From Verrucomicrobiota bacterium (lineage in GTDB: Bacteria; Verrucomicrobiota; Kiritimatiellia; RFP12; UBA1067), in NCBI GenBank assembly GCA_016280825.1, contig JAEEHL010000168.1, forward strand, positions 1-48,960: DNA of 48,960 nucleotides. Reading direction: 5' to 3'. Position numbers and translations under genes: made by a program. This document shows positions 25,042-48,907 of the stretch, piece by piece (the stretch's first letter is position 1; each line of letters starts with the position of its first letter). A model generated the notes under the pieces. That model made no database searches. It saw nothing but the letters and a program-made list of their open reading frames with translations, and was not told the origin of the DNA.

Positions 25042-25587
25042 ATGGGAAAGACATACAAGGGCAAGGCGAAGGTTAGGGCTAAAATCGACAAGGCGAAGCG
25101 CAAGATTGCGCGGAAGGTCAAGGGGAAGGACATCGCGGCTGTCGCGCTGTTCCTCTGCCTGTCCTGCCTTGTATGCGGCTGTCTGGAGACGCAACCCGCG
25201 AGCAGGGCGACGACGGCCAACTACCGCTTCGAGTTCGAGTTCGACGACTCGGCGCGAAACAACACCGTCAACATTACGCTGGGCGACGGCGCGTTGGCGA
25301 GCGCGGACTCCAGCGGCTCGACGGAGACGCAGACCGCTACGCCGTCCATGAGCATACCCGTCCGCGTGGACGCGAGGTACAACGACCCCGTTAAGTCGGG
25401 CGGCGACGCAATCACCGCCGCGATAAAGGGCTTGACCCCTGCGGCGCAGGCGTTGCTCGAAAAGGCGACACGCGAGAAGTACACGGGGTCGCTCAACCTC
25501 GAAAAGGAGGACGGGACGACTATGCAGGTCGATTGCATTGACGGCAAGTGTACATCCTGTATCGACTGCGTTCCGACTGGCACTTGA
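25042..25587 (+). CDS. putative lipoprotein with a polybasic N-terminal extension and a Cys-rich C-terminus
   Basis: SD aaggag. The first 29 residues MGKTYKGKAKVRAKIDKAKRKIARKVKGK are followed by AAVALFLCLSCLVCGC (lipobox-like). The C-terminus is CIDGKCTSCIDC. Confidence 0.6.
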   Translation: MGKTYKGKAKVRAKIDKAKRKIARKVKGKDIAAVALFLCLSCLVCGCLETQPASRATTANYRFEFEFDDSARNNTVNITLGDGALASADSSGSTETQTATPSMSIPVRVDARYNDPVKSGGDAITAAIKGLTPAAQALLEKATREKYTGSLNLEKEDGTTMQVDCIDGKCTSCIDCVPTGT

Positions 25588-25618: not shown

Positions 25619-25685
25619 CAGACCTCCATCGCAGAGGTTCCTTTCTACCCCGCTTGATTTCCCGTCGGCGGGGTGATTTATTTTC
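25619..25685 (+). ncRNA. candidate short (~65 nt) terminated transcript
   Basis: Predicted start ~25619. Hairpin 1 is gacctc/gaggtt (25621-25639). Hairpin 2 plus the T-tract lie at 25647-25685. No ORF. Confidence 0.3.
25647..25685 (+). terminator. intrinsic terminator-like hairpin at the end of the late module
   Basis: accccgc (25647-25653) pairs with gcggggt (25668-25674), followed by gatttatttt. Confidence 0.5.
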
Positions 25686-25851
25686 CCCGCAGATTACCCG
25701 CGCAGGGCTTCCGTGGGCGCGTCCGCGCCGTCCGCCCGTGCAAACGCCTACGCCACAAGGGGAACGCGCCCTGCGAGCGAATTTGCGCGTTATGCGCGAC
25801 GCCCCGCTTCTTCAGGCGAAAACGGGCGTTGCCCCCCCCCTATACCCCCCT

Positions 25852-25886
25852 CTATAAAATACAATAAAATATAATATAATATATTA
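25852..25886. other. AT-rich island (35 bp almost pure A/T), preceded by C9 and C6 tracts
   Basis: ctataaaatacaataaaatataatataatatatta sits in an otherwise GC-rich genome. C9 at 25832-25840 and C6 at 25845-25850. Confidence 0.8.
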
Positions 25887-25947
25887 GTCTACGCCGTAGT
25901 ACGGCGAAGACTACGCCGTAGTATGCGACGGACTACGCCGTAGTATA
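25887..25947. repeat. iteron/operator array 1: three copies of CTACGCCGTAGTA at exact 22-bp spacing
   Basis: Copies start at 25889, 25911 and 25933. The core ACTACGCCGTAGT is a 13-bp palindrome about its central base. Confidence 0.85.
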
Positions 25948-25996
25948 GGAGGCGGCTGTCGCGGCGGCGAAAATCCAGCGCAGGGAACGCCGCATC

Positions 25997-26071
25997 GTTT
26001 TTGCCCTTGTTTTTATGGGGTGAAAACGAGGCGACTCGCGTTTTGCCCTTGTTTTTAGGGGATGAAAACGA
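25997..26071. repeat. two copies of a ~33-bp palindromic motif (CGTTTT-GCCC-N9/10-GGGG-GAAAACG)
   Basis: 25997-26029 and 26040-26071, with centres ~41.5 bp apart. The same motif class recurs three times at 45124-45235. Confidence 0.75.
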
Positions 26072-26095: not shown

Positions 26096-26124
26096 TTTAC
26101 AAATATGCGAAAATTTGGTATAAT
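26096..26124 (+). promoter_or_regulatory. early promoter TTTACA-N17-TGgTATAAT
   Basis: -35 at 26096-26101 and -10 at 26119-26124. The spacer aatatgcgaaaatttgg is shared with three other promoters. An A-tract repeat aaattttcaaattttca lies upstream. Confidence 0.7.
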
Positions 26125-34139: not shown

Positions 34140-34447
34140 CGATGATTGTATGGACGGCGCAGAATAGGAACGGCGAATTGCTTGCCGAGGGCAATCCGAA
34201 TCCGCACCTGTCGTATTCGTTCTGCTATCCCTACGACCCCGAATACCTGCGGACGACGCGGTGGCTCTTTTGTCGCACGAAGCGGGAAATCGAAGAACAC
34301 ATCCGCAAGTGGCACGACGAATACCGCCGCGCCCTTGCCGCTTACCCCCGCAGTCTTGGGCGCAGGCATTGGCACTGCCGACCCGTGCGCATGGTGGTAT
34401 CGTGGAAGCCCGCGAGCGGACGGGAATTAGCAGATTTCGCAAGTTGA
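34136..34447 (+). CDS. hypothetical protein
   Basis: ATGA coupling, 103 aa. Its stop TGA lies inside the -35 of the next promoter. Confidence 0.55.
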   Translation: MTMIVWTAQNRNGELLAEGNPNPHLSYSFCYPYDPEYLRTTRWLFCRTKREIEEHIRKWHDEYRRALAAYPRSLGRRHWHCRPVRMVVSWKPASGRELADFAS

Positions 34448-34472
34448 CAAACGGGCGAAAATTTGCTATAAT
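34444..34472 (+). promoter_or_regulatory. early/middle promoter TTGACA-N17-TGcTATAAT (full consensus)
   Basis: -35 at 34444-34449 and -10 at 34467-34472. The spacer aacgggcgaaaatttgc matches the promoter family. Confidence 0.75.
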
Positions 34473-37373: not shown

Positions 37374-37402
37374 TTTCCAAACTGCCGAAAAAATGGTATA
37401 AT
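37374..37402 (+). promoter_or_regulatory. early/middle promoter TTTCCA-N17-TGgTATAAT
   Basis: -10 at 37397-37402. The spacer aactgccgaaaaaatgg is of the family type. Confidence 0.6.
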
Positions 37403-37445: not shown

Positions 37446-37697
37446 ATGAACGCAAGCAAGAAACCCGCCGCCGCGAAGCCGAAGAAGTATCGGCTGTCCC
37501 GTGCGGCACTCATGCAGAGGCGCGACGCCAACAGGAAGTCCGCCGCTGTCCGCAAGACCTCCTACAAGTGGCGCACCGCCGCCATCACGGAGGACAACTA
37601 CGAATGGGCGGTCACGCGCTACGGCTCGGTTAACGAAGCCGTCCGCGCACTGCGCCGCTTGTCGGCGAAGGAGGGGGAGGTAGTATGTTCGAGTTGA
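37446..37697 (+). CDS. small basic hypothetical protein
   Basis: Conserved leader caagaaaggaaaaatgcgATGA. 83 aa, Lys/Arg-rich N-terminus. Confidence 0.5.
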   Translation: MNASKKPAAAKPKKYRLSRAALMQRRDANRKSAAVRKTSYKWRTAAITEDNYEWAVTRYGSVNEAVRALRRLSAKEGEVVCSS

Positions 37698-43612: not shown

Positions 43613-43922
43613 CGCGCCGAAGATTGACCTGAAGGCGGAGTGGAAAAAACTCACCGAGGAGAACAGGTGGCTACGCACGGAGGTCAATAGGCTCGAAGGC
43701 GAACTGCGGCAGGTCAGAGCCGAACGCGAAGACTGGCGCAAGAACGCTCTGGACGGGAACGCACGGCTTGAGGGCATACTTAAGCGCATCCGTAGGTATG
43801 TGGACGCGCAAATGGAGGAGGACAGGATTTCCAAGTTGAATTTGGAGGCATATAACGCGAAGACCGTCGCCTTCAACGACCTCCTGAAGTGCGACGGAAT
43901 CCCGAAGGGAGGCATGGCGTGA
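43560..43922 (+). CDS. coiled-coil hypothetical protein
   Basis: 120 aa with LTEENRWLRTEVNRLEGELRQVRAERE. Confidence 0.55.
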   Translation: MGKKVTKEAAATGGKCADAPKIDLKAEWKKLTEENRWLRTEVNRLEGELRQVRAEREDWRKNALDGNARLEGILKRIRRYVDAQMEEDRISKLNLEAYNAKTVAFNDLLKCDGIPKGGMA

Positions 43923-44152
43923 TTGTCACGCGGGTCTGTAGGCAGTGCGGGCGCGATATGGCGATGGAGGTGCGTTCCGAGACCTCCCATCGCCGATACT
44001 GCGACGACTGCCGCCGCAAGAGGGCGGTTCAGGCGACCTTGCGTAGCAGGAAGCGGGTCAACGACCCGAACAACTGCCGCGTCGAGGTTCGCACTATCAG
44101 GCTATACTACTCGCGCACGGGTGCGCTTCTGCGGATGGAGGTGGTAAGGTGA
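43919..44152 (+). CDS. zinc-ribbon protein
   Basis: GTGA coupling. CRQCG....CDDC. Confidence 0.5.
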   Translation: MIVTRVCRQCGRDMAMEVRSETSHRRYCDDCRRKRAVQATLRSRKRVNDPNNCRVEVRTIRLYYSRTGALLRMEVVR

Positions 44153-45116: not shown

Positions 45117-45123
45117 AAACGCC

Positions 45124-45235
45124 CGTTTTGCCCTTGAAAATAGGGGCTAAAAAAATTTCAAGATTTTTTTCGCCCATAAAATAAGGGCGAAACGCGACTA
45201 ACATCAAAAACACCCTTATTTTTCAAGGGGTTTTT
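45124..45235. repeat. three phased palindromic motifs (T/A-tract-GCCC-N9-11-GGGG/C-A/T-tract)
   Basis: 45124-45155, 45168-45192 (perfect tttcgccc-N9-gggcgaaa) and 45206-45235, with centres ~41-42 bp apart. Same class as 25997-26071. Confidence 0.75.
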
Positions 45236-45241
45236 CGTATC

Positions 45242-45271
45242 TTTACAAACATACGGAAAATGTGCTATAAT
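45242..45271 (+). promoter_or_regulatory. promoter TTTACA-N18-TGcTATAAT for the 45.3-48.3 kb cassette
   Basis: -35 at 45242-45247 and -10 at 45266-45271. The spacer aacatacggaaaatgtgc is of the family type. Confidence 0.7.
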
Positions 45272-45352
45272 ATTGGCGTTCCTGCGGGACAGGTGAAAGC
45301 GCGGTGCTTCCCCGCCTGTGGGACGGGTCAAAACAAGAAAGGGTCAAAAACA

Positions 45353-45499
45353 ATGATTAACGAAATTGACAAGGAGGTTGCGAAGTTTGCCGCCCTCTAC
45401 GTCATCGACAACGCCGAGACGCTGGGTATCAGGGTGAAGGACGTTCCTCATGGGCCGCACCTCCGTCCCGCTCCGTACTTCGCAGGAATCATTCACTAA
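45353..45499 (+). CDS. small hypothetical protein (48 aa)
   Basis: First ORF after the promoter, with leader aagaaagggtcaaaaaca. Confidence 0.45.
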   Translation: MINEIDKEVAKFAALYVIDNAETLGIRVKDVPHGPHLRPAPYFAGIIH

Positions 45500-45529
45500 T
45501 CATCAACCCCAACAGAAAGGAACCCTACA

Positions 45530-46345
45530 ATGAACACGATAAACGAAAACGAAGTCCGCCTCGCCAACCTGAAGGCCTCCGCCGATAAACGCCGTGCGGA
45601 GTTTTGCGACATCCGCGCCGAGGTGACGCGCCAGATAGCGAAAATCATCGAGGACGCCGTCGCCGCAAGCGGCGTCAGCGGCTACACGCTCCGCAAAGGC
45701 GAGAACGGGGAACTCCGCGACACGGAGTACATGACGCTGGACGGTGAAATCGACGGCGAGCGTCTGCACGACATCGACCTCTACTACCGCAACGACTCGT
45801 GGCGCGACGAGGACGGCGGCGAGCGCGTCTTCTCGGTGAATACCTGTTGTTTCGGCCGTGTGAAGGCTGGCGACAAGAGCGGCGTTGCCTACTACCTCCT
45901 CATGGGCTACCTCGTCACTCACCTTCAGGAGATTCAGGACGCGCTGAACGCCATCCCCGACTGGGAGGCCTACAATCGCTCCCGCCGCATCTACCACATC
46001 AGCCGCAACGATGCGGAGGCGTTCGAGCGCAAGATGGACGCGGAGGCAAAGATGGCGAAGGAAGCCGCCGTGCTGGAGCGGCTTATGGAGGGCGCGGAAA
46101 TTGCCGTCCACTACACGACGGACTTCGACCTCGTGCGCGGCGTCCACGTCCTGACGGGCATTAAGATCATGACCGTCGAGAAGGTCACGAACAAACTCGT
46201 GTTCTTCAAAGACCGCAGGGGGCAGAACAAGAAGGCGGACGTCGTCGCCAACCTTGTACGCGGCATCGACAATTGCGGCTGGTCGTTTGCGGCGGACGTT
46301 GACATGGCCTTTCCCCGCGACTGCAAGGACGGCGCGAACTTCTAA
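45530..46345 (+). CDS. hypothetical protein (271 aa)
   Basis: The leader gaaaggaaccctacaATG is identical to that of the 47031 gene. No motif was recognised. Confidence 0.65.
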   Translation: MNTINENEVRLANLKASADKRRAEFCDIRAEVTRQIAKIIEDAVAASGVSGYTLRKGENGELRDTEYMTLDGEIDGERLHDIDLYYRNDSWRDEDGGERVFSVNTCCFGRVKAGDKSGVAYYLLMGYLVTHLQEIQDALNAIPDWEAYNRSRRIYHISRNDAEAFERKMDAEAKMAKEAAVLERLMEGAEIAVHYTTDFDLVRGVHVLTGIKIMTVEKVTNKLVFFKDRRGQNKKADVVANLVRGIDNCGWSFAADVDMAFPRDCKDGANF

Positions 46346-46395
46346 CGACCCGCAAAGGAAAGGAGCAAACGACATGATTATCGAACGCAAACCCA

Positions 46396-46689
46396 ATGTC
46401 CGTTCAGGAAGCCTACGCAATCGCCCGTCAGTTGATTGCGCAGGCCAAGGCGAACGCGCTGTCCGCCTACAACAAGGCGTTCTCGGACTTCCAGCGCAAG
46501 CACGGGTTCTTCACCCACCGCGAGGAGCGCGACTACGAGCATCACGGCGACGGCTGGCGTCACATGAAGACCTACACGGCTCCCGACGGCGCGAACTTCT
46601 ACGAGGTCGTCCAGTACCCCGCGCAGGAATACGGCCTCCGAGTGGAATACTGGAGCGACGACGCCGTTTCGACAATCGCATACCTCTGA
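46396..46689 (+). CDS. hypothetical protein (97 aa)
   Basis: The frame looks coding. The strong SD aaaggaaaggagc actually precedes an out-of-frame ATG at 46374. Confidence 0.5.
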   Translation: MSVQEAYAIARQLIAQAKANALSAYNKAFSDFQRKHGFFTHREERDYEHHGDGWRHMKTYTAPDGANFYEVVQYPAQEYGLRVEYWSDDAVSTIAYL

Positions 46690-46713
46690 ACCCGAACGAA
46701 AGAAGGAGCGGAC

Positions 46714-47004
46714 ATGAAAAGGCAAAGCGACTTCCAGCAGTATAAGGGCGTTATCGAAGACCTCGGCTACGGGTCGAGAATGGGCGAGGAAATCCCCGCC
46801 ACCACCACCTACCGCGAAGCCGTCGTGGAACTGACGTACTACATCGGGATGGCGAACGAGCGGGGCGAACCCTTCAATGTGGAGGTGTTCGGCGACGGGT
46901 ACGACGCGCCCGTTCCGTCCGTTCGCAGGGCGTACTTCAGGGCAAAGCGGCTCTTGAAGAAGTTCTCCGCCGTCCCCAATCCCAACAGCCGCCTAAACAA
47001 CTAA
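46714..47004 (+). CDS. hypothetical protein (96 aa)
   Basis: SD gaaggagcgg. Confidence 0.6.
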   Translation: MKRQSDFQQYKGVIEDLGYGSRMGEEIPATTTYREAVVELTYYIGMANERGEPFNVEVFGDGYDAPVPSVRRAYFRAKRLLKKFSAVPNPNSRLNN

Positions 47005-47030
47005 ACAACCCAAACGAAAGGAACCCTACA

Positions 47031-47831
47031 ATGCTCACGAAAACCGAAATTGAAACCTGTTGCGCGAACCTGATGCAACGCTTCAACGCGCTGGAGGAGA
47101 CGCGGCGGAACGTCGCAAAGGCGTTCGACACCGCCATCGGACGCCGCCTGTCCGCCCTTGTGGAGAACGGGCTGGGTCGCTACAACATCCCCGACGACCG
47201 CAATTCAGCCAGCGCCCGTTTCTTCTCCAGCAACGCGCTGAAGTCCTCTGGGTGCCGTTGCTACTTCATCTGGGACAACGACCGCAAGACGCTCGTAATG
47301 GGATTCTGCCCCGCGAACGAGTACAACCTGTCGGGCGGAATCCGCTACCTCCAGATATACGCCCAGCGTCGTGAAGAGAGGAAGGGCGCGGACGAGGTGC
47401 GCGCAACGTTTCAGGTTGACGGGCTGTGCAATACGCACTACCTCACCGCGTCGTTGCGCGACAACAGCCTCTGCGACGCCCCATACCTCATGTTCTCGGA
47501 GGAGACGCGCAAGAACTGCAACGGCAATACCCGCAACCCCCTAGAAGACTACATCCGCAACCCGAAGGACGTTCAGGCTCTCGTGGACGCGAATAACGCC
47601 CTGAAGGAGTACGAGCGGCGGCTCCATCGCATCGCCCACCTCATGGAAGCGGCTTCGGAGATACTGTCGGCTCTGGAGTCCCGCTTTGACTGCACGGAGA
47701 AGGAGCGCGACGAGCGCGTCCGCTTCATCTTTGGGCTGTCGGGCGAGTGCGCGACCCCGCTCGCTACAGTGTACCGCGTCAAGTTGTCGCCAGAACCCTA
47801 CGCCGCGCCTACGGACGGCAGTGCAGAATAG
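47031..47831 (+). CDS. hypothetical protein (266 aa)
   Basis: The leader is identical to that of the 45530 gene, and the size is similar. No motif was recognised. Confidence 0.65.
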   Translation: MLTKTEIETCCANLMQRFNALEETRRNVAKAFDTAIGRRLSALVENGLGRYNIPDDRNSASARFFSSNALKSSGCRCYFIWDNDRKTLVMGFCPANEYNLSGGIRYLQIYAQRREERKGADEVRATFQVDGLCNTHYLTASLRDNSLCDAPYLMFSEETRKNCNGNTRNPLEDYIRNPKDVQALVDANNALKEYERRLHRIAHLMEAASEILSALESRFDCTEKERDERVRFIFGLSGECATPLATVYRVKLSPEPYAAPTDGSAE

Positions 47832-47852
47832 ACAGGACGGAAGGAGGCTGAT

Positions 47853-48305
47853 ATGACCCTTGCAGAAGTAGCCCAAGAACTCGGCTGTTCCATCGCCCAA
47901 GCCAGACCAGCCCACCGTCGCCTTATGGCGGCGTTGAAGCGGGAGGGCGAGGCGTTTCTGGCCGATGAGCGCAGGCGCATGGAGGAGCGCGAGAAGCGCA
48001 AGTCACGACCCCCTCGCCGCCGCCTCCCCCAATGGTGCAGGCCGTTCTGGGAGCGCCGCGACGGAGCGCAACACATCGTTTACTGTTCCGCCAAGCGCAG
48101 GCACGACAAGGAGCCGACGACCGCCTTCTGGCTCTGGTTCAACGGACAGCCTGTCGCCAAGTCCGATACTCTCGACGGGGCGAAGAGCCTTACCGCTCTT
48201 CGGGCGATGCTTTACGACACCTATGTCTGGGACGCTTCCCAGTGGGAGGACGAGTTGCGGAACAATCCCCAGATAGCCGAGGTGCGCAAGGCCTGCGGCG
48301 TTTAG
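47853..48305 (+). CDS. HTH DNA-binding protein (sigma-70 region 4-like N-terminus)
   Basis: MTLAEVAQELGCSIAQARPAHRRLMAALKRE resembles region-4/LuxR-type HTH. SD ggaaggagg. Last gene before the terminators and iteron array 2. Confidence 0.55.
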   Translation: MTLAEVAQELGCSIAQARPAHRRLMAALKREGEAFLADERRRMEEREKRKSRPPRRRLPQWCRPFWERRDGAQHIVYCSAKRRHDKEPTTAFWLWFNGQPVAKSDTLDGAKSLTALRAMLYDTYVWDASQWEDELRNNPQIAEVRKACGV

Positions 48306-48358: not shown

Positions 48359-48374
48359 AACAGCCCGACTTCGC

Positions 48375-48415
48375 GCGGCGGAAGGACTTTGACCCCTTCC
48401 GCCGCTTTTTGTTTT
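48375..48415 (+). terminator. strong intrinsic terminator
   Basis: gcggcggaagg (48375-48385) pairs with ccttccgccgc (48395-48405), followed by tttttgtttt. Confidence 0.8.
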
Positions 48416-48421
48416 CCCTGC

Positions 48422-48543
48422 CACTACGCCGCCCGTATCGACTACGCCTAGACTACGGGCTACTTTCCAGCGGACTACGGCGTAGTATGCCGCCTACTAC
48501 ATCGTAGTCTAGGGATTAGTATGTTATAAACTACGGCGTAGGC
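48422..48543. repeat. iteron/operator array 2 (six full or half ACTACGSCGTAGT sites)
   Basis: Site centres are near 48429, 48447, 48458, 48480 (perfect gactacggcgtagta), 48502 (tactacatcgtagtc) and 48535. Spacings are about 18/11/22/22/33 bp. Confidence 0.8.
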
Positions 48544-48582
48544 TAAATTATATTATATTATTCATGTATTATTATAATTTTA
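48544..48582. other. AT-rich island 2, followed by a G6 tract
   Basis: taaattatattatattattcatgtattattataatttta. Its reverse complement aligns with island 1 (25852-25886). Confidence 0.8.
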
Positions 48583-48606
48583 GGGGGGTACTATATACGC
48601 GCATAC

Positions 48607-48618
48607 GCGCACGTGCGC
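48607..48618. repeat. perfect 12-bp GC palindrome GCGCACGTGCGC
   Basis: Read directly. It is embedded in acgcgcatacgcgcacgtgcgcg, and a related gcgcgttatgcgcg sits at 25787-25800 in module 1. Confidence 0.7.
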
Positions 48619-48877
48619 GAGAGGGTTAAAAACCCCGCTTCTCCAAATACCCCTCAAATCCGCGATTTAAGCGCGACCCCGCCCAAACCAAATAAAACCC
48701 CCACCCCCACCCCCGAAAACGCCGTGGCGACCCGAATTTCGCCGTATATTGACGCGCTGGCGACCTGTGCCACGCCGAAAACCCCGTTTTGACCAGTTAA
48801 GACCCCCAAATTGCGCCCCTACGCCCCCTGCAAGCCGCCGCCCGTTTCGCCCTATACCCACCCCGCCGCCGACCCCC

Positions 48878-48907
48878 TTGACACATTCCGCATCATTGTG
48901 ATACAAT
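48878..48907 (+). promoter_or_regulatory. late-type promoter TTGACA-N18-TGaTACAAT reading out of the window
   Basis: -35 at 48878-48883 and -10 at 48902-48907. It presumably drives terS/terL in a circular or permuted map. Confidence 0.6.

Follow-up and report, generated by a model that had tools for sequence, protein, structure and literature searches.

Sites for DNA-bending proteins that lie in helical phase upstream of strong phage and rRNA promoters are a textbook theme. The rRNA promoter rrnB P1 of Escherichia coli is preceded by an UP element and by three sites for Fis, with centres at approximately −71, −102 and −143; the core of a Fis site is 15 bp long and has the form G-N13-C. The late promoters served by P2 Ogr and P4 Delta possess a poor −35 element, depend on the activator and carry a dyad, TGT-N12-ACA, near −55, and the operators of the ribbon-helix-helix protein omega of pSM19035 are contiguous 7-bp repeats located next to or over the promoter. 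In phage phi29, the sites for protein p4 upstream of the late promoter A3 are several imperfect inverted repeats within one control region (PMC3100819, PMC1904284). The protein binds CTTTTT-15 bp-AAAATG mostly by indirect readout of A-tracts, with a single base contact per half-site, and bends the DNA (PMC3100819). Here we analyse an element of this familiar kind, new in its sequence, that occupies positions 45124–45235 of contig JAEEHL010000168.1, a metagenomic contig of a tailed phage (48,960 bp, analysed as a whole and hereafter called the window; ∼61% G+C, all genes on the + strand). It consists of three sites, B1–B3, in which CCC and GGG triplets enclose an A/T-rich spacer, and stands upstream of promoter B, the promoter of a gene cassette. 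Judged from the sequence, the three sites could well serve a conserved DNA-bending protein as an upstream array, of operator or architectural type, whose units are in helical phase; to this reading we give about even chances.

The closest worked example of the logic proposed here is phi29 p4. As in phi29, the window has imperfect inverted repeats in one intergenic control region upstream of a promoter of the host sigma type, more than one promoter would be controlled, and recognition of few bases, combined with A-tract readout and bending, is proposed. However, the sites differ (CTTTTT-15 bp-AAAATG versus CCC-9/11 bp-GGG with T/A flanks), A3, which has no good −35, depends on p4 but the promoters of the window are near-consensus, and both the host and the phage type are unrelated. 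No homologue of p4 or p6 was found in the family scans of the window proteins. In geometry, the nearest counterpart is rrnB P1, likewise a very strong sigma-70 promoter with A/T-rich DNA at −40 to −60 and three sites for bending dimers (putative in our case) that lie on one face of the helix and reach to approximately −140. The spacing is irregular in rrnB, however, and regular here (41–42 bp), and the host of this phage may not have Fis. When set against the Fis core, the sites were rejected as Fis sites: B2 reads G-N15-C and B1 is without a G/C pair at the 14-nt offset. Only the linker at 45145–45159, GGCTAAAAAAATTTC, fits the core, and loosely so. More generally, the consensus sequences of Fis, IHF, LysR-type boxes and Spo0A boxes were compared by eye and none fits the sites. 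The window resembles the Ogr and Delta promoters in having a short, long-spaced dyad centred near −55 to −57 and in repeating it at several promoters of the same genome, but its −35 and −10 elements are near-consensus, the half-sites are different and the sites are three and phased. The omega system is similar in that a single small regulator would serve several promoters of the same replicon through short direct or inverted repeats; it differs in that the units here are ∼30 bp long and 41–42 bp apart.

Three phased sites upstream of promoter B

The features of locus B are given below, with site positions relative to a transcription start predicted near 45278.

45124–45148: site B1, cgttttGCCCttgaaaataGGGGct (cgTTTTGCCC-ttgaaaata-GGGGct; GCCC at 45130–33, GGGG at 45143–46), centre 45138, about −140
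45147–45171: linker element E2, A7-TTTCAAG-A-T7 (in relatives AAAAAAATCTTYCG...TTTTT), an A-tract/T-tract junction between sites 1 and 2
45168–45192: site B2, TTTCGCCC-ataaaataa-GGGCGAAA, perfect 8-bp arms, centre 45180, about −98
45193–45200: GCGACT block, CGCGACTA, adjoining site 2 (it equals the 5' flank AGTCGCG of the inverted site); invariant alignment columns 90–95
45206–45235: site B3, AAAAACACCC-ttatttttcaa-GGGGTTTTT, centre 45221, about −57, overlapping the would-be UP-element zone
45242–45271, + strand: promoter B, type 1, TTTACAaacataCGGAAAATgTGcTATAAT; TTTACA-18-TGcTATAAT, 11 of 12 consensus positions, extended −10

The original prediction had placed three copies of a palindrome upstream of the cassette promoter, in steps of 41–42 bp and stopping just before the −35 element at 45242. 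Direct reading of the sequence confirms all three at these places, with spacings of 42 and 41 bp between the centres, and B3 ends 6 bp before TTTACA. The word palindrome holds only in part: B2 has perfect arms, but this perfection is not kept in relatives, and B1 and B3 are only quasi-palindromic. The units of the array are better described as quasi-palindromes of the form CCC-(9–11 nt, at least 89% A/T)-GGG.

Distribution of the sites in the window

Two sister sites are present at a second locus, A, upstream of a promoter that belongs to the same class (type 1) as promoter B. The window contains two further promoters of this class.

25996–26028: site A1, CGTTTTTGCCC-ttgtttttat-GGGGTGAAAACG, centre 26011.5
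26039–26070: site A2, CGTTTTGCCC-ttgttttta-GGGGATGAAAACG, centre 26053
26096–26124, + strand: promoter A, type 1, TTTACAaatatgCGAAAATttGgTATAAT; TTTACA-17-TGgTATAAT
34444–34472, + strand: type 1 promoter without an array, TTGACAaacgggCGAAAATttGcTATAAT
37374–37402, + strand: type 1 promoter without an array, TTTCCAaactgcCGAAAAAaTGgTATAAT; drives the gene for an 83-aa basic protein

The centres of A1 and A2 are 41.5 bp apart, and both sites lie upstream of the promoter at 26096. Type 1 promoters are recognised by the spacer motif TTnnCAAAYnnnCG(G)AAAAWnTGSTATAAT, found at 26096, 34444, 37374 and 45242 and, with the same spacer, in all relatives; the two that bear arrays (26096 and 45242) are the two preceded by long intergenic DNA.

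Matches to CCC-N7–13-GGG number 80 in the 48,960 bp, and the spacer is at least 80% A/T in five of them, which are exactly B1–B3, A1 and A2. The motif is thus over-represented and confined to promoter-upstream DNA in the window (five of five occurrences). In order to assess chance, each of the two A/T-rich upstream regions was shuffled 20,000 times with dinucleotide composition preserved, a procedure that keeps the local A/T richness and does not count the regular spacing. At least three sites arose in 0.02% of the shuffles of B and at least two in 0.095% of the shuffles of A; both together were obtained 0 times. Across 135 kb of sequence (the window and the related loci described below), sites with an A/T spacer occur only upstream of type 1 promoters, except for one inside a gene. 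For practical purposes, chance is excluded.

Locus A of the window is weaker as independent evidence than it seems, since A1 and A2 are likely duplicated: they form a 31-nt direct repeat (94% identical, offset 42 bp), and the pair probably arose by local tandem duplication in this lineage. Independent, non-duplicated site pairs are present at locus A of two related loci, L007 and L009.

Measured back from the −35 element, the site centres of the window lie at 21, 62 and 104 bp (B) versus 43 and 84.5 bp (A). The offset between the loci is about two turns, which places the sites on the same helical face at a different position. Relative to the predicted starts near 45278 and 26130, the B sites (at the positions listed above) and the A sites (at about −77 and −118.5) share one helical face, with deviations of no more than roughly a third of a turn. 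The earlier argument that five sites at two promoters with identical phasing are unlikely to be accidental is partly supported: the sites are non-random in the shuffles, they follow each other in steps of about four turns, and they serve two promoters of the same class 19 kb apart. Identical phasing does not extend to the register to the −35 element, which differs between the loci.

Conservation in related loci

Relatives of the phage are confined to gut and rumen metagenomes. The 271-aa protein encoded just downstream of the array has 23 relatives with 49–69% identity, and our comparison set comprised ten related B loci (nine of them distinct; the 271-aa neighbour 49–68% identical) and five distinct related A loci. 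In all relatives the order at locus B is rusA, ∼125 bp of intergenic DNA, the promoter, the leader, a variable small gene (absent in some) and the 271-aa gene. Each of the nine distinct related loci has a site at the B1 position (GCCCTTATTTTACAGGGG). Counted from the −35, site centres are found 20–21, 61.5–63 and 102.5–104 bp upstream at every B locus and also at the A loci of L007 and L009, so that position and helical phase are both kept. Further copies of the linker element E2 stand upstream of promoters in L007, L009, L010 and L012; those of L011 are in reverse-complement orientation.

In the intergenic alignment of the B loci the mean column identity is 85%. Pairwise nucleotide identities are 0.82 (rusA), 0.79 (intergenic DNA) and 0.72 (271-aa gene), which means that the DNA between the genes is conserved to the same degree as the genes themselves. 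A coding explanation, through a minus-strand open reading frame at 45158–45331, was ruled out by single-base indels among the relatives.

The invariant bases are the CCC and GGG triplets, the CG and T-run on the 5' side of CCC, the A-run that follows GGGG and the GCGACT beside site 2. When oriented by their T-rich strand, the sites share an asymmetric consensus of ∼30 bp, (T)CGTTTTnnCCC-TTATTTTAY(W)-GGGG-(T)AAAA, which is used in either orientation: + − + in the B loci of relatives and + + at locus A of the window. Judged in the same way, B2 is inverted with respect to site 1 of the relatives, and B1 of the window has the flanks seen in relatives with the A/T spacer flipped. What is conserved is the triplets, the CGTTTT flank and the helical phasing, and not hairpin pairing or strict palindromy. 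Conserved triplets and a conserved CGTTTT flank around a spacer that varies in sequence, and even in orientation, are the usual picture for a site that a dimer binds with indirect readout of the centre. If one factor bound them all, as may reasonably be supposed, just such a set of sites would be expected: non-random, about four turns apart, conserved in position and present at two promoters of the same class.

A half-site, TTT(C)CGCCC(C), abuts the −35 element at A and B loci of nearly all relatives (L003–L007, L009, L010 and L041–L047). It is missing at both array promoters of the window.

Alternative explanations: intrinsic curvature, RNA hairpins and replication

Within the arrays, the alternation of A/T and G/C is strongly periodic at 10.5 bp (z up to 11.7) and at 13–13.5 bp (z up to 14.6), the fourth and third harmonics of the 41–42-bp unit. 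A/T blocks with a 10.5-bp period are also what would be expected of DNA that is curved or bendable by itself and that, together with an UP-element-like A/T tract, raises the binding of RNA polymerase through its alpha C-terminal domains and upstream wrapping, independently of any factor. In a wedge model, the estimate of which is indicative only and carries little weight, regions A and B are among the most curved 3–4.5% of 150-bp windows. The T-rich tracts of B3 lie at approximately −62 to −43, in the UP-element zone; locus A of the window has AAATTTTCAAATTTTCAC next to the −35; and the sites are dispensable at other type 1 promoters, as described below. However, the two regions are not at the top of the curvature ranking, and the arrays are not the most curved places of the window. 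Compared with an UP element, an A/T-rich tract at −38 to −59 in contact with the alpha C-terminal domains, the B3 spacer and T5 run agree in position (about −62 to −43) but are interrupted by GGGG. UP elements cover only −40 to −60, not sites at −98 and −140. Curvature, moreover, needs no invariant CCC/GGG or CGTTTT, yet these are the best conserved bases. Factor-independent curvature therefore appears unlikely as the explanation of the arrays, though it keeps an appreciable chance.

Since there is no canonical terminator between rusA and the array, the early transcript probably runs into it, and the sites might then act as hairpins in read-through RNA (a terminator, processing or stability element) or, at the DNA level, as extruded cruciforms. 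The RNA of 45117–45241 folds at −42 kcal/mol (z = −5.6), DNA hairpins of single sites have z values of −2.2 to −4.0, and B3 with its T5 run was flagged as weakly terminator-like on both strands. That the window RNA folds so strongly is a side effect, since B1 and B2 are inverted copies of each other. Against a hairpin function, the stems have only 3–4 G:C pairs and loops of 7–11 nt, and the RNAalifold consensus of ten relatives keeps only the hairpin of site 1, with a covariation term of −0.39 kcal/mol and a double change in 1 of 30 pairs. The sole informative change in site 1 (G.G to A.C, in L006) does not compensate. In four relatives the right arm of site 3 has decayed, the flanking runs are non-complementary in L003 and L005, and locus A, which has a proper terminator ahead of it at 25660, needs none. 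With no Rfam match either, a role as RNA hairpins or cruciforms is, in our judgement, quite improbable.

Three narrower candidates were rejected. An intrinsic terminator calls for a G+C-rich stem of five pairs or more, a loop of 3–8 nt and a U-run immediately behind it. As an intrinsic terminator only B3 was flagged (5–6 pairs, 3 of them G:C, a loop of 7–8 nt and T5), and B1, B2, A1 and A2 were not; the B3 flag depends on flanks that relatives do not share, and its arm is not conserved. Rfam (at the gathering score) and tRNA scans of the whole window were empty, and a structured RNA family was discarded because there is neither an Rfam match nor covariation support. REP/BIME-like mobile palindromes, which have long G+C-rich stems and small loops and are scattered behind genes in no fixed register to promoters, do not agree with A/T-rich stems of 3–4 G:C pairs and large loops, nor with the strict register to the −35 element.

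Repeated and phased sites in A/T-rich DNA also resemble iterons, and locus B is located exactly at the junction between the conserved rusA and a cassette of variable gene content. It could accordingly be thought of as a replication origin, an iteron-like array or a boundary for recombination between mosaic modules. There are, however, two loci, each locked to a promoter at a fixed distance and both on the transcribed strand side, and no initiator gene is adjacent, the neighbours being rusA and genes without an assigned function. Iterons are typically direct repeats spaced by about two turns, at a single locus with an unwinding element and an initiator gene, whereas the spacing here is four turns and the orientations are mixed. 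The repeat-rich, A/T-rich blocks at 25830–25960 and 48420–48600 look more like origin or partition sites. We consider an origin or recombination boundary very improbable.

A putative DNA-bending protein as reader of the arrays

If the arrays are binding sites for a bending protein, each unit of ∼30 bp, (T)CGTTTTnnCCC-[9–11 A/T]-GGGnnAAAA, would be bound by one dimer of a sequence-specific protein that contacts the CCC/GGG triplets through the major groove and senses the A/T DNA of spacer and flanks through the minor groove. With a repeat of 41–42 bp (four helical turns) and A/T blocks every 10.5 bp, all bound proteins would be placed on one face of the DNA, and ∼125 bp of upstream DNA (∼−155 to ∼−43) would bend or wrap towards the RNA polymerase at the promoter. 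The same factor may tune the early unit (from 26096) and the mosaic cassette (45278 to ∼48405) together. Because the sites lie upstream of the −35 element and the promoters are strong on paper, we lean towards stimulation or timing of already strong promoters rather than simple occlusion.

A number of observations weigh against binding by such a protein. The promoters at 34444 and 37374 adjoin coding DNA and have no sites upstream, and at the A locus of L010 sites 2 and 3 have been lost and the promoter kept. Type 1 promoters that are without some or all of the sites imply that the array is dispensable for promoter function and accessory to the promoter rather than part of it; being near-consensus, both array promoters should fire without an activator. 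A rigid dimer is not easily reconciled with a site 2 spacer that varies between 7 and 11 nt among relatives, nor with site 3 of L004, L006, L042 and L047, which keeps its left arm and T-rich spacer but has lost the GGG arm. Pfam, PHROGs and NCBIfam scans of ∼40 window proteins returned no recognised transcription factor, and the sequencing runs that hold the phage are of DNA only (gut and bovine gut metagenomes), with no RNA run among them.

The triplets are unchanged among relatives, so that they would have to be read either by a nucleoid-type protein of the host or by a phage protein that is itself highly conserved. The 13-bp palindromes found elsewhere in the window (25886–25951 and 48474–48541), in contrast, do differ between relatives. 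One product of the phage can, speculatively, be proposed as the reader.

37446–37697, + strand: candidate reader, an 83-aa very basic protein with its own type 1 promoter and a near-invariant core in relatives

Counterparts with 76–92% identity to it are encoded by the contigs that carry L005, L006/L007 and L009/L041. The AlphaFold model (pLDDT 70) has three helices: a basic helix, followed by an extended segment and two helices joined by Gly-Ser. The protein has no significant Pfam, PDB-sequence or fold match, a match to Mu Mor at E = 6.6 being noise, and a ribbon-helix-helix fold is only a guess from the model. A 150-aa protein (47853–48305) with a helix-turn-helix-like N-terminus (EutK_C, E = 0.013) was rejected as a conserved reader since it is absent from the loci of relatives; its gene is present only in the cassette of the window. 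For the 271-aa protein the structural model is confident (pLDDT 88), with no PDB fold match at E ≤ 0.001. The window also encodes an 87-aa protein (43889–44152) with a CxxC-x17-CxxC zinc ribbon and a basic tail, which is 50–55% identical in relatives and has no significant family match.

Leader and other promoters

Promoter B is followed by a leader that is conserved among the related loci.

45272–45335, + strand: conserved leader with a stem-loop, 18 consensus pairs, 4 of them with compensatory change; part of the putative portable module of array, promoter and leader

The leader behind promoter B, also found in L003–L006 and L041–L047, is shared with the locus A leaders of L009 and L010. Conservation is higher in this leader than in the first downstream gene, and the start codon has two GGGTCAA(A/G)A repeats ahead of it. 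Taken together, the array, the type 1 promoter (CGAAAA spacer) and the leader hairpin might represent a lineage-specific portable expression module, read by a new small DNA-binding protein without a recognisable fold (the 83-aa protein being the candidate) that wraps ∼125 bp and switches two distant units together. In this complete form the proposal is decidedly doubtful.

All near-consensus promoters of the sigma-70 type are on the + strand. Those of type 1 are found in the early region; those of type 2 (TTGACA-N15-TGATAnAnT, at 2927, 19628 and 48878), together with a related promoter, TTGACA-17-TAGAAT, at 25584, are found in the structural region or at module borders.

Gene layout and relatives of the phage

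The 5' end of the window is inside the gene for the large terminase, positions 57–608 matching terminase C-terminal profiles. Opening in the middle of this gene, the window is an incomplete genome; related contigs reach 56–58 kb. The 3' end is just past a strong promoter at 48878 (TTGACA-18-TGaTACAAT), and in relatives the matching promoter leads to a gene for a protein of 164–185 aa and a gene with a ParB-N domain. With the terminase cut at one end and this promoter at the other, ∼8 kb of the genome is missing from the window. Structural and lysis genes extend to ∼25.6 kb. Early and DNA-metabolism genes occupy 26.1–45.1 kb and include those for DUF932, DUF7168, PAPS-reductase-like, RecE-like, RecT-like, SSB and RusA proteins. 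The cassette (45.35–48.3 kb) contains six genes annotated without function and is followed by a terminator-like hairpin with a T-run (∼48372–48405, read from the sequence). Among relatives, only the 271-aa gene is constant in the cassette, and genes for proteins of 97, 96 and 266 aa come and go. Compared with L003–L006 and L041–L047, the cassette behind promoter B (45353–48305) is mosaic, its gene content varying from phage to phage.

GenBank phages gave no megablast match, and the portal protein is only ∼22% identical to the portals of jumbo siphoviruses. In IMG/VR nothing was found by searches with proteins or with the leader, site and promoter patterns; the 28 matches to the site pattern were all judged to be chance, as was the single match to the promoter pattern, in a phage of 37% G+C. 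Two scans of GTDB genomes, for the 271-aa family and for RusA, gave no match.

Other elements of the window

The segment 25584–25686 consists of the promoter TTGACA-17-TAGAAT, a hairpin, CCTCCATCGCAGAGG, and an intrinsic terminator (25660–25673 and a T-run), and resembles a ∼65-nt small RNA (folding energy −23.8 kcal/mol, z = −3.2). A part of it, CCTCCATCGCAGAGGTTCCTTTC, is identical in L007 and L008, and the stretch TTCCTTTC is complementary to the GAAAGGA-type ribosome-binding sites of the phage.

The 22.6-kb early region is bracketed by mirror-image blocks at 25820–25960 and 48420–48620, each with a C-rich run, an A/T-rich 'tataatataat' core and 13-bp palindromes. The left block has three copies of ACTACGCCGTAGT and the right block copies of the ACTACGGCGTAG type; the version in L007 is ACTAGTCCCTAGT. 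Variation of this palindrome between relatives points to binding by a phage-specific protein, which might be a repressor or a protein that acts in partition or binds an origin. The right-hand block is followed at 48585–48620 by a tract of alternating purines and pyrimidines, tatatacgcgcatacgcgcacgtgcgcg, which is present also in L004 and L005.

Significance for the phage lineage

The phage belongs to a gut and rumen lineage without a cultured or annotated relative. For such a lineage, the shared phased array offers a motif that can be searched for in candidate hosts, a DNA bait for the regulator and a promoter module that would explain how newly acquired cassette genes come to be expressed.

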